Shown: positions 15,920 to 25,064 of the stretch, in pieces | How the letters are laid out: every line of letters starts with the position of its first letter | Numbering within the stretch: the first letter of the stretch is position 1 | Assembly: GCF_057098645.1 (NCBI RefSeq) | Contig: NZ_CM169472.1 | Strand: one strand, 5' to 3' | Length of the DNA: 64,000 nt | Translations under genes and position numbers: made by a program | The notes under the pieces: model-generated | Told to the model about the DNA's origin: nothing | Databases searched by the model: none | The model's input: the letters and a program-made list of their open reading frames with translations, nothing else

Positions 15920-17173
15920 TTATTTATCTAATAAACATTGGTCCGATTGTGCTTTAAAATAAGCACAAAGCAATATTATGGTGACAAACACAGCAGTCGG
16001 AACCGGTTTAGAAAAGAGTATTACATCACTTAGGCCTACTACCAGTAGTGAAAAAAGCAAGATCAAAATATAAGGTTCTTTAGCAGTTCTTAAGGCATAT
16101 ATGAGTATTGCTGAAAATGCTAAAATTGTTAATACAACTCCAGGAATACCACGCGTTGATAACGTATCTATGAGATCGTTATGCAAATGAGAATCTACAT
16201 AGGGTAAAGCGCCACTCAATCTAGGCTCTTTTTCTTCTAGTTCATGTATTTTTTCTGCACGTTTTTCCAGTGATTGTCCTATTGGAGAATATGTTTTTAA
16301 GCCAACTTCATACATTGCCAGACGGGCACCGACTGAAGTTCTGGTGTTATCATGCGAATAATTAACTAAATCGTTATTTAAGTCATTCATTCTCATAAGC
16401 AATGTATCTTTAAAAGAAAATACACCTGCTAATAATGCAATCGCAATAAAACAATATAATTTATAATTAATTCGCTTATTAATATAACTATCCATTACGA
16501 TTAATAGTAACGCAAAGAATGGAAACACTAATATGGCTGCACGCGTCTCAGTTACTATGACAGCACATAAGCTAAGCATGAAGTTAATTGTATATAATGT
16601 TGTTTTATGTCTAAAGTCGGATTTTAAAATGAGAATTGATGCCAGTAAAGAAGGGAAAAGGATGATGTAGCCTGCTGTTGTAGCGTGGGAAGCTGATAAT
16701 GCAACACGGTCAACGTTTAAATAGAAATGTTGCCACATGGCATGCGCAAAAAAAAGTAACTGCGTTGCCAGGGATGCGAACAGAATTAGTTTCTCAAATT
16801 TTATTTTTGTTCTTATCTCATTTTTAGCAAAAAGAACCAAGAAAATAAAAGCGCTACACAAGGCAATTTTTCCAGTTTCCATTGGGCCACGATATGCATT
16901 GGTATAAATAGAGCCTGAAACTTTATAATGTGAATACCAGATGATATTTACGATACCCAAAAGACATAATGAGATGAAAATTAACAAAGTAGGATTATTA
17001 GTTATTGTTTTTTTTGGTGTCATTAGAAAATACAATGCAGATATAATTCCAGCTGCATGAAGAAACTTTGTTGCAACATCATCCCATAAAGACAAAGTCA
17101 TTAAAGAAAAAATACATAATATGAGAATTAAAGACTTTATACCAGAATTAATTTCATTCCAACAAAACGACAT
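15920..17173 (-). CDS. waaL: O-antigen ligase (polytopic membrane protein)
   Basis: 417-aa highly hydrophobic multi-TM ORF, AT-rich; last gene of the minus-strand waa operon. Confidence 0.85.
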   Translation of the reverse strand: MSFCWNEINSGIKSLILILCIFSLMTLSLWDDVATKFLHAAGIISALYFLMTPKKTITNNPTLLIFISLCLLGIVNIIWYSHYKVSGSIYTNAYRGPMETGKIALCSAFIFLVLFAKNEIRTKIKFEKLILFASLATQLLFFAHAMWQHFYLNVDRVALSASHATTAGYIILFPSLLASILILKSDFRHKTTLYTINFMLSLCAVIVTETRAAILVFPFFALLLIVMDSYINKRINYKLYCFIAIALLAGVFSFKDTLLMRMNDLNNDLVNYSHDNTRTSVGARLAMYEVGLKTYSPIGQSLEKRAEKIHELEEKEPRLSGALPYVDSHLHNDLIDTLSTRGIPGVVLTILAFSAILIYALRTAKEPYILILLFSLLVVGLSDVILFSKPVPTAVFVTIILLCAYFKAQSDQCLLDK

Positions 17174-17218
17174 ATAGTTTCAACCTATGCTACGAGGATG
17201 GGTTATTTAATGCAAGAT

Positions 17219-18202
17219 CTAACGTTTATTCTTTTTTCTATTTACCAGTCTTACCATCCTCCAGAGAATATAATTTTTTGATACTAATATTTTTGCTCGT
17301 CTCTTGTCTCTCTTGCCAGGAAGATTACAATCTTTTAATTCTTTTTCATTGCTATCAACTAATTGATTTAATAGTTTAAAATCACCATTAAGTAGAACAT
17401 TCCATAAATAACGAGTTTTATGATAAGCTCTATTTTGAGTCAATAATGTATGAATTTCTTCTTTCCGGTTACCTTTGTATAACTGCATCACAGAAGAGTA
17501 GATTCTTTCGTGCGCAAATGACTCATGTCGATAATGAGTGATGGTTCTACATGAGTTCATTAAGGAATTTTCTCTATAGTTATGCTTATACATATAATAT
17601 GGAACCGCATACATATCGCATGTAATTAGCAGTCGATAGATAAAATCCAGATCTTCTCCTAGTCGTAAATCTTCATCAAAAAAAAGATTATTCTCTTCCA
17701 GAAGTTGTTTTCTTATAAACAAGCACCCTATATGGAATCTAACCTTTTTATAAAAAAAGTCGAAAAGTAAAGATCCTTCATTAAACTCTGTATTTATAGG
17801 TGAGTAAGTAACACCATCTTTTATATAATGGCCATAAAGCCCACAATAAATCGCATCCCCTCCCGTCTCATGTTGTCTGGTATACATCTTCAGCAGATAG
17901 TTAGGATCTATCTCATCATCATCATCCATAAAACATATAAACTGTCCTTGCGCCTTGCGGATACCTGTATTCCTGGCTGACGAAACACCGCCATTTTCTT
18001 TATTGAGAATAATTAATCGAGAGTGGGTTAACCCATACTCTCTCAAAACGTTTGATGTGTTATCTTTAGAACCATCATTAACAATAACAATTTCAAAATT
18101 TGGGTAAGTTTGTTTTTCTAATTTCGTTAGAGTTTCAGTAATGTAATCAGATGAATTATACGTCGGTATTATTATGGATACTAAAGGGTAATCATTGCTC
18201 AT
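17219..18202 (-). CDS. waaV: Family-2 glycosyltransferase (outer-core beta-glucosyltransferase, WaaV-like)
   Basis: 327-aa ORF with GT2 N-terminal signature (VSIIIPTYNSSDYI...NDGSKDNT...DDDDE); position matches R1-type order. Confidence 0.75.
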   Translation of the reverse strand: MSNDYPLVSIIIPTYNSSDYITETLTKLEKQTYPNFEIVIVNDGSKDNTSNVLREYGLTHSRLIILNKENGGVSSARNTGIRKAQGQFICFMDDDDEIDPNYLLKMYTRQHETGGDAIYCGLYGHYIKDGVTYSPINTEFNEGSLLFDFFYKKVRFHIGCLFIRKQLLEENNLFFDEDLRLGEDLDFIYRLLITCDMYAVPYYMYKHNYRENSLMNSCRTITHYRHESFAHERIYSSVMQLYKGNRKEEIHTLLTQNRAYHKTRYLWNVLLNGDFKLLNQLVDSNEKELKDCNLPGKRDKRRAKILVSKNYILWRMVRLVNRKKNKR

Positions 18203-22892: not shown

Positions 22893-24009
22893 CCAGACCA
22901 CCCGTTATGATATCCGCCGCTTTCTCTGGCAGACTGTATAAATCTTGTGTATCAGCATAATGTCGCGCATTTTCCGCCCAGGCCTGGCGCAATGAAGATT
23001 GCGTTAACGCTTTGCGTAAAATCTCATTCAATGTTTCCTGGCGGAATGGCTCAACAATAGCCTCGCCGCAATTGGCCTCGACAATATAATGCGCATAGCC
23101 ACAAACGGCTGTTGTTAGTACCGGTAATCCTGCAGTAATCGCTTCCAGCAGCACAATTCCCGCCGCTTCCTGGTAGGCAGGATGCAGTAATAAATCCGCC
23201 GCCGCCATTAATTCCGAGACATCGTTGCGCCCCGAGAAGAAGTGAACATTACTGCGCACGCCGCGTTTTTCTGCCAGCGCCTCAAATTTTCGCGGTTTAT
23301 CCTGCCCAACAACATATAGCAATGTGTTGTGGCGCAGCGAATCCGGTAACGAAGCAAGTGCTTCAATGGAACGATCGACACCTTTACGCGTGAAGTCTGA
23401 ACCGACCTGCAACAATAAATATTGTTGTTCGGTTATTCCATTCTTCTTACGGAAGATTTCACGGCTATTGGCTGGCTGCTGGCTATATTTACGATCAGGA
23501 TAAATCCCCGGTGGCAGAATATGAAAACGCTCCGCTTCAGTCTGATAATGTTTCTGGAAATCGGCGATTTGCTTATCTGTCAGCATTAGCAGCTGTGTCG
23601 GCTTGCCCTGTTCGAAGGTTGCCCGCTCAAAGGCGGCATAATGGCGATAACGTGACGTCAGGCGATAGAAAAAGCCTTTTTCCTGCGCTACTTTCTCGGC
23701 ATAACAAACATCAGCGGCATAATAAACGTCCAGCCCCGGCATTTTGTTGAATCCAACGACTTTATCGACGGGATGTTCGCGTAAATGTTTTTGCACCCAG
23801 GCAAAATACTCCGCATTGCGCCCGTGATTGGTATGCGATTTAACCGGCACTTTGATCAGTTCAAATACATCAGGGCATTCGCCTTCCCACGACTGGGTAT
23901 AAACCCGAACATGATGACCTCGGGCGGCGACTGTCTGAGCAATACGCATAAAATCGCGCTGCAAACCGCCAAAGGGAAAATATTTATATAAACAAAAAGC
24001 AACGATCAT
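22885..24009 (-). CDS. waaG: LPS glucosyltransferase I (GT4)
   Basis: 374-aa [23 protein letters not shown]...; overlaps waaP start and waaQ stop. Confidence 0.9.
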
Positions 24010-25064
24010 AACGACGTACCTGTCGTGGAGGAGGGCAGTAATTTATCGACAGCAGCAATGACATCTGCCGCCGGAATAACCGAAAGATACATCTCATTTC
24101 GGTCACGCTGATCGCGCGTTGGCATTTCCCGGTAATCTCCCGCCCAGAATTGAATCATGTTATTTGACCAGGGACGCCAGAAAATATGGTCTGTCGCACC
24201 AAACAGCGATATCAGCGGCGTATTAACTGCAGCGGCAATATGCGCCGGTGCGGAATCAACGCCAATAAACAGCTGCGCATGATCGATTAACGCACCAAGT
24301 TCCGGGAAGGTCACCTTTCCAGCCAGCGCCGTTACTGGTGGCGTCTGGCATCCCTGCGCAATTTCATTGACGCAGGCCAGATCGTCTTTATCTGGGCCGG
24401 ACGTCAGAACGACTTCATAACCACGAGCATGTAAGGCATCAATCACAGCGGAAAACTTGGCGTTGTCCCAGCATTTGAAGATTTGCCGCGCCGTAGGTTG
24501 GATAACCACATAATTTTGTCCAACACCAGCGTGATCAAGTTCGCGACGCATACGTTTCCAGCTTGCAGGCGGGTAACTCATGGTTGTCTGCTTCACCAAC
24601 GAATCAAGTCCCAATGGTGTCAGCACGGATAAGTTACTTTCCACCACATTTCCACCCTGCAACGGCACCAAATGGGTGAAACTTTTACGCCAAAAAGCAG
24701 ACTGCCGATGATGATAATCCTGGGAAATTTTCACACGGGCATTTAATAAGCGAACCAGTATAGCAACCATCCATTGATCGGTAAGATTGACGATAAGGTC
24801 ATACTTATTGGCACGTAATACCTTGATGAGATGAAAAAAGTTGGTAATTTTTTCTGAGGCTTTTGCTTTTTTATTTTTTATGCCGTAGAGCGCGTTAATC
24901 TCTGGATTTTCAGACAGGATCGGGATGGTGTCCTGATAAAGCAGCACATCGATTTTTGCGTCAGGGTAATTTTTTTTCAGCGAACTAATGACGGGAGTAG
25001 TTAATAACATATCCCCATGAAAACGCATCTTAATGAGCAAAATTCTTCGAAATGGCTTATCCAC
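24006..25064 (-). CDS. waaQ: LPS heptosyltransferase III (GT9)
   Basis: 352-aa ORF; first gene of the minus-strand waa operon; exact start codon uncertain. Confidence 0.9.
   Translation of the reverse strand: MDKPFRRILLIKMRFHGDMLLTTPVISSLKKNYPDAKIDVLLYQDTIPILSENPEINALYGIKNKKAKASEKITNFFHLIKVLRANKYDLIVNLTDQWMVAILVRLLNARVKISQDYHHRQSAFWRKSFTHLVPLQGGNVVESNLSVLTPLGLDSLVKQTTMSYPPASWKRMRRELDHAGVGQNYVVIQPTARQIFKCWDNAKFSAVIDALHARGYEVVLTSGPDKDDLACVNEIAQGCQTPPVTALAGKVTFPELGALIDHAQLFIGVDSAPAHIAAAVNTPLISLFGATDHIFWRPWSNNMIQFWAGDYREMPTRDQRDRNEMYLSVIPAADVIAAVDKLLPSSTTGTSL

Follow-up and report, generated by a model that had tools for sequence, protein, structure and literature searches.

The waaQ operon of an Escherichia coli chromosome carries the gene content of the R1 lipopolysaccharide core type

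The R1 waa locus is already textbook knowledge and specifies one of the most common lipopolysaccharide (LPS) core types of Escherichia coli. In the R1 literature, WaaO is a glucosyltransferase, WaaV requires the prior action of WaaW, and the beta-linked glucose (beta-Glc) that WaaV adds is the point at which WaaL attaches O-antigen or enterobacterial common antigen (ECA). The R1 core has been reported for E. coli ATCC 8739, the Crooks strain (PMC3690026), and Shigella sonnei phase II has been described as the R1 chemotype (PMC7504096). The LPSTyper study, the source of the typing primers used here, published an R1 amplicon of 842 bp and found R1 at a frequency of 35.5% (PMC13293308). The core type sets the site of O-antigen attachment as well as recognition by phages and anti-core antibodies, and it matters for strain typing. 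Here, we analysed a stretch of 64,000 nucleotides (the window) from contig NZ_CM169472.1 of RefSeq assembly GCF_057098645.1, which carries a waa operon on its minus strand at positions 15920–25064. We conclude with high confidence that the region is the waaQ operon on the chromosome of an R1-core E. coli that belongs to the O145:H28 lineage of Shiga toxin-producing E. coli (STEC) or is a very close relative of it.

An earlier note on this DNA had read the region as a minus-strand operon of waaQ-G-P, two genes of glycosyltransferase family 8 (GT8), a kinase gene, a third GT8 gene, a GT2 gene and waaL, and had proposed the R1 core type from this arrangement. The map of open reading frames (ORFs) and the NCBIfam and Pfam families bear out the gene content. 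Nine intact ORFs, waaQ-G-P-O-T-Y-W-V-L, lie back-to-back on the minus strand, with gaps of at most 95 nt and two overlapping gene pairs, and a near-identical genome carries all nine at the same coordinates in its RefSeq annotation. ATCC 8739 and the R1 strain NIPH17_0020 are annotated with the same order, likewise convergent with waaC. The arrangement waaQGPOTYWV-waaL is therefore as described, but the placement of waaL at the end of the long operon is common to R4 and not unique to R1. Because R4 has the same order, gene order alone is insufficient to separate the two types: a ligase in the long operon indicates R1 or R4, and waaV together with waaL indicates R1. The sequence that discriminates R1 from R4 is limited to waaV, waaL and the final ~95 nt of waaW (window 15920–18393).

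The R1-defining gene waaV (17219–18202, minus strand; 327 residues) encodes a GT2 beta-1,3-glucosyltransferase (Pfam Glycos_transf_2, E = 2e-39) with a DDD motif at residues 93–95. WaaV is 96.3% identical to the GT2 protein of NIPH17_0020 (source name of the exact sequence, UDP-glucose:(glucosyl)LPS beta-1,3-glucosyltransferase), and 10 of its 327 residues differ from the ATCC 8739 protein. By comparison, BLASTP returned no match between WaaV and either K-12 WaaZ or R4 WaaX, a GT25 protein that sources name beta-1,4-galactosyltransferase, and nothing between WaaV and K-12 WaaU beyond a 25-residue chance match (E = 0.2). The GT2 protein is thus closest to none of WaaX, WaaU and WaaZ. The R1-type lipid A-core:O-antigen ligase gene waaL (15920–17173, minus strand; 417 residues; Pfam Wzy_C, E = 4.6e-19) gives the same picture. 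WaaL shares 97.6% identity with its R1 counterpart in NIPH17_0020, compared with 35.7% for R4 and 30.4% for K-12, and it differs from that of ATCC 8739 at 9 of 417 residues; the source name on its exact sequence is 'Lipid A-core:surface polymer ligase WaaL'.

Core-type polymerase chain reaction (PCR), run in silico, was positive for R1 and negative for R2, R3, R4 and K-12. The R1-F primer matches exactly at 17602–17620 within waaV and R1R4-R matches exactly at 18435–18454, whereas the other seven primers, for R2, R3, R4 and K-12, find no site in the window with up to three mismatches allowed. The predicted R1 product measures 853 bp, compared with 842 bp as published, because of an 11-bp duplication at the start of waaV. 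The alignment and PCR checks that the earlier note had suggested thus both support its R1 proposal: the R1 primer sites are exact, WaaV is 96–97% and WaaL 97.6% identical to R1 strains, and the GT2 protein matches R1 WaaV with no match to R4 WaaX. Every defining feature of the R1 waa locus that sequence can reveal is present and those of R4 are absent, and nothing contradicts the genotype call. By orthology, the corresponding chemotype would be a Glc-Glc(beta-Glc)-Gal-Gal outer core (Gal, galactose) carrying O-antigen on the beta-Glc.

An R4 core, or a hybrid of R1 and R4 such as that reported for ECOR46 (PMC13293308), would likewise present this gene order with waaL within the long operon, and WaaO and WaaT are 100% identical between the window and the R4 strain 88COLEC. 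However, the locus contains no ORF for a GT25 protein (WaaX), the R4-F primer site is absent, the ligase is far from R4 WaaL, and only one waaL and one waaV lie between waaC and waaW. Within the window, these observations refute an R4 or hybrid locus at the sequence level, and we give that reading almost no credence.

The R1 assignment also agrees with how the locus is distributed. At least 80% of it is present in 1825 of 5426 complete E. coli genomes as judged by megablast, in agreement with the R1 frequency in the LPSTyper study. The matches fall into three coverage classes: full length, query positions 2474–9145 only (window 18393–25064), and waaP-G-Q only; the middle class is R4, as in strain 88COLEC. 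The earlier note's remark that R1 is also carried by some Shigella holds, as WaaV, WaaW and WaaL each share a 90% cluster with S. sonnei proteins. The region is identical to that of E. coli 95-3192 at 9142 of 9145 positions, a match that rounds to 100.0%. The R1 call helps to identify the strain background, which is of O145:H28 type; the O157:H7 genome that we compared has an R3-type locus. A literature search on O145 and the R1 core returned nothing relevant except the statement that the Crooks strain is R1. Separately, the 4.83-Mb sequence NZ_CP026085.1, labelled 'E. coli DH5alpha', contains a complete R1 locus at 98.8% identity; it is probably mislabelled, because a K-12 derivative should carry the K-12 core.

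The remaining genes of the operon, all on the minus strand, are described from its head. waaQ (rfaQ; 24006–25064) starts with GTG and encodes a heptosyltransferase III of 352 residues, which scores 713.8 bits against NF007742 RfaQ (cut-off 467) and contains the Pfam Glyco_transf_9 (GT9) domain; WaaQ is 99.7% identical to the proteins of R1 and R4 strains and 73% identical to K-12 WaaQ. waaG (22885–24009), which shares an overlap of 4 nt with waaQ and of 8 nt with waaP, encodes a 374-residue GT4 glucosyltransferase I that adds GlcI onto the second heptose (HepII). WaaG shows the Pfam domains Glycos_transf_1 and Glyco_transf_4 and is 99.5% identical to its R1 and R4 counterparts, compared with 89.8% for K-12. 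The heptose(I) kinase gene waaP (22095–22892), of the Kdo/WaaP kinase family, encodes 265 residues from its ATG and scores 482 bits against NF011703 RfaP (cut-off 170), with 100% identity to R1 and R4 WaaP. Its longest ORF begins with a GTG at 22901, but the ATG at 22892 is the RefSeq start and gives a length equal to that of K-12 WaaP, and is most likely the true start.

The outer-core genes follow. waaO (21063–22079; 338 residues) encodes the GT8 alpha-1,3-glucosyltransferase for GlcII, with Pfam GT8 and GT8C domains; WaaO is 98–100% identical to the proteins of R1 and R4 strains and 50.6% identical to K-12 WaaO, and its exact sequence is a member of the UniRef cluster whose representative is Q9ZIS5_ECOLX. 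The Prokaryotic Genome Annotation Pipeline (PGAP) labels it 'lipopolysaccharide 3-alpha-galactosyltransferase', using a model that scores the Salmonella-type enzyme as well. waaT (20051–21046; 331 residues; Pfam GT8 and GT8C) is assigned from the literature as the GT8 alpha-1,2-galactosyltransferase for GalI. WaaT is 98.8–100% identical to the second GT8 protein of R1 and R4 loci, and its exact sequence falls in the UniRef cluster Q9ZIS6_ECOLX. Between the second and third GT8 genes lies the heptose(II) kinase gene waaY (19349–20041; 230 residues), whose product scores 398 bits against NF007684 RfaY (cut-off 248), matches Pfam WaaY at E = 1e-128 and is 99.6% identical to R1 WaaY. The third GT8 gene, waaW (18298–19323; 341 residues; Pfam GT8 and GT8C), encodes the alpha-1,2-galactosyltransferase for GalII, and PGAP names its orthologue UDP-galactose--(galactosyl) LPS alpha1,2-galactosyltransferase. 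WaaW is 98.5% identical to R1 and 93% identical to R4, with the divergence from R4 located mostly in the last ~30 residues.

The outer-core genes are more AT-rich than their housekeeping neighbours, as the earlier note had observed. From waaL to waaO (15920–22079) the GC content is 0.351, with single genes ranging from 0.325 to 0.382, whereas hldD, waaF, waaC, waaA, coaD and mutM lie at 0.51–0.55; the waaP–waaQ part has a value of 0.476. Against a window median of 0.513, no other 6-kb stretch has a GC content as low as that from waaL to waaO.

A JUMPstart element and a likely terminator lie at the two ends of the operon. The JUMPstart element (25114–25152, minus strand) sits 50 nt upstream of waaQ in its leader and scores 55.2 bits against Rfam RF01707 (gathering threshold 35; E = 1.8e-10). 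K-12 has a conserved counterpart of this stretch in its own waaQ leader, where the small RNA rirA is annotated. An ops sequence, GGCGGTAGCGTG, lies inside JUMPstart at 25114–25125 and is the sole ops match in the window, with 0.04 expected by chance; the leader therefore shows the pattern of an RfaH-dependent operon, namely ops (GGCGGTAGnnTG) within JUMPstart. Under the established model for a long AT-rich operon, expression of the waaQ operon would depend on RfaH. At the other end, waaC and waaL converge on a perfect 13-bp inverted repeat (15878–15909). Its predicted fold has an energy of –16.2 kcal/mol (z = –3.55), which no shuffled version out of 200 equalled. The repeat is plausibly a bidirectional terminator; a scan for consensus terminators did not call it. 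Scans of the operon gave 34 promoter-like sites (31.9 expected) and 4 terminator-like sites (8.6 expected); these counts are at the level of chance and were set aside.

With linkages and reaction order following the R1 literature, the operon would be expected to work as follows. Transcription would start upstream of JUMPstart/ops, and RfaH antitermination would carry RNA polymerase through ~9 kb of AT-rich DNA. The products would then complete the core on Hep2-Kdo2-lipid A, in which WaaG would add GlcI and WaaO the alpha-1,3-linked GlcII, while WaaP would phosphorylate HepI, WaaQ would add HepIII and WaaY would phosphorylate HepII. WaaT and WaaW would add GalI and GalII, respectively, each through an alpha-1,2 linkage, and WaaV would place the beta-1,3-Glc side branch on GlcII. 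After the flip by MsbA, the R1-specific WaaL would ligate O-antigen, or ECA, to the beta-Glc.

The start of waaV differs from that of other R1 loci. Alignments with R1 strains, a pattern search and Tandem Repeats Finder (TRF) reveal an 11-bp tandem duplication, two copies of ACACGATGAGC, which spans the waaV start codon (18197–18218, minus strand) and extends the waaW–waaV spacer to 95 nt, compared with 84 nt without it. The duplication creates a four-codon upstream ORF (uORF) at 18199–18213 that encodes MSTR followed by a stop (ATG-AGC-ACA-CGA-TGA), and its TGA overlaps the ATG of waaV. Among the 1833 genomes with the region, 24 carry the duplication; several of these are unlabelled, and the labelled ones are without exception O145, O145:H28 or O145:NM. 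The carriers are 24 of the 26 O145:H28-lineage genomes found in this analysis. O145:H28 strain RM13514 lacks the duplication but otherwise has the same RefSeq proteins as 95-3192 for all nine genes, and RM12581 is missing from the list of carriers. The restriction of labelled carriers to O145 supports placing the strain in the O145:H28 lineage. In practical terms, the R1 typing amplicon shifts from 842 to 853 bp in the O145 lineage.

Within 15920–25064, three bases differ from 95-3192, giving WaaV I66L, WaaW D249Y and one synonymous change; they are located at 18007–19165, and the first 34 kb contain seven substitutions in all. The exact WaaV protein with I66L was not found in a collection of 15 billion proteins, in which the WaaW D249Y variant is present on 18 contigs and differs from the other alleles compared. 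We also considered D249Y as a hit on a conserved GT8 residue and rejected this, since an alignment of nine GT8 paralogues shows variation and some gaps at this column, which lies in a variable loop.

Several of these features might count against reading the locus as that of an ordinary R1-core strain. The duplication puts a decoy ATG and the four-codon uORF before waaV, so that the output of WaaV, and hence the share of core able to accept O-antigen, could differ from that in other R1 strains. The predicted Shine-Dalgarno interaction is weak at both ATGs, at similar and hence uninformative values of about –2.9 and –2.7 kcal/mol, and the substitutions WaaV I66L and WaaW D249Y are rare or even private. 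An R1 genotype might therefore coexist with a truncated or poorly O-substituted core, if the duplication, and possibly I66L or D249Y, lowered WaaV or WaaW activity. In favour of this, the out-of-frame ATG sits behind the original ribosome-binding region and the true start lies 11 nt farther on; the literature makes WaaV, itself dependent on WaaW, the provider of the O-antigen acceptor; and three of the seven substitutions against 95-3192 fall within 1.2 kb of waaV–waaW. Yet the uORF stop overlaps the waaV ATG (ATGA), a layout that usually permits reinitiation, and D249 and I66 are non-conserved positions. Moreover, many of the 24 carriers are labelled O145, O145:H28 or O145:NM, and these labels, if serological, would imply that O-antigen is ligated in carriers. 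We therefore consider a poorly substituted core unlikely. Slightly more doubtful still is the idea that the duplication is a reversible slipped-strand switch whose uORF tunes the beta-Glc acceptor and so the display of O145 antigen or ECA. An R1-core strain of the O145:H28 lineage, or a very close relative, remains our preferred reading.

A second small repeat is found in the neighbouring waaC. Near its 3′ end (15814–15840, plus strand), the 9-bp in-frame repeat AAAACGCTG, which encodes ENA repeats, is present three times (TRF period 9, 3.0 copies). ATCC 8739 has one copy, and its WaaC has 323 residues compared with 329 here. Elsewhere, waaC lengths vary by multiples of 9 bp, and these differences suggest that other genomes hold two or four copies. 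No new biology follows from the R1 call; as lineage markers, the small repeats have some modest value for typing.

Outside the operon, the window shows further differences from 95-3192. It is without a ~16-kb integrase/primase island adjoining yicC (34464), and has an extra ~1.3-kb insertion sequence element of the IS3 family at 44369–45680 (ORFs 44412–45299 and 45299–45625), which indicates that the source is a related but different strain. In addition, mutM (27280–28089, minus strand) is intact here with 269 residues, whereas it is annotated as frameshifted in 95-3192 because of a 1-bp difference near 27736. At 55156–58150, selC (tRNA-SeC; 55156–55250) is followed by a tyrosine integrase gene (55413–56591) and then by a second low-GC stretch (~0.33–0.40), and the whole resembles one end of a genomic island integrated at selC.

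Our comparison with the known core-type loci reveals the closest likeness to R1. The R1 locus, with F470 as prototype and also known from E. coli C/NCTC122, ATCC 8739, many extraintestinal pathogenic E. coli and S. sonnei, has the same nine genes in the same order; in R1 strains the operon is also convergent with hldD-waaF-waaC, the proteins are 96–100% identical to those here and JUMPstart precedes waaQ. The locus differs from other R1 loci in ~3% of WaaV and WaaL residues relative to NIPH17_0020 and ATCC 8739, in the 11-bp duplication, and in having three copies of the waaC repeat in place of one or two. The R4 locus (waaQGPOTYW-waaX-waaL) shares the architecture and, from waaQ to most of waaW (window 18393–25064), 99% of nucleotides; R4 strain 88COLEC, however, has a 257-residue GT25 WaaX in place of the GT2 WaaV, and a WaaL that is 36% identical. 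By comparison, K-12 and R3 (O157:H7) place waaL after waaC on the plus strand, whereas here it ends the long operon on the minus strand. Their flanking hldD-waaF-waaC and waaA-coaD are common to the window, waaQ-G-P heads the long operon in all of them, with R3 waaQGP ~99% identical in nucleotides, and both likewise use GT8 outer-core transferases and WaaY. The outer-core sets are distinct, with waaS, B, O, J, Y, Z and U in K-12 and waaI, Y, J and D in R3. Furthermore, htrL/yibB lies upstream of hldD in K-12 and O157:H7 but is found neither here, in the kbl–hldD gap (12657–12869), nor in ATCC 8739. The left boundary of the type-specific block falls inside the 3′ end of waaC, where the last ~20 WaaC residues differ among R1, R4 and K-12.

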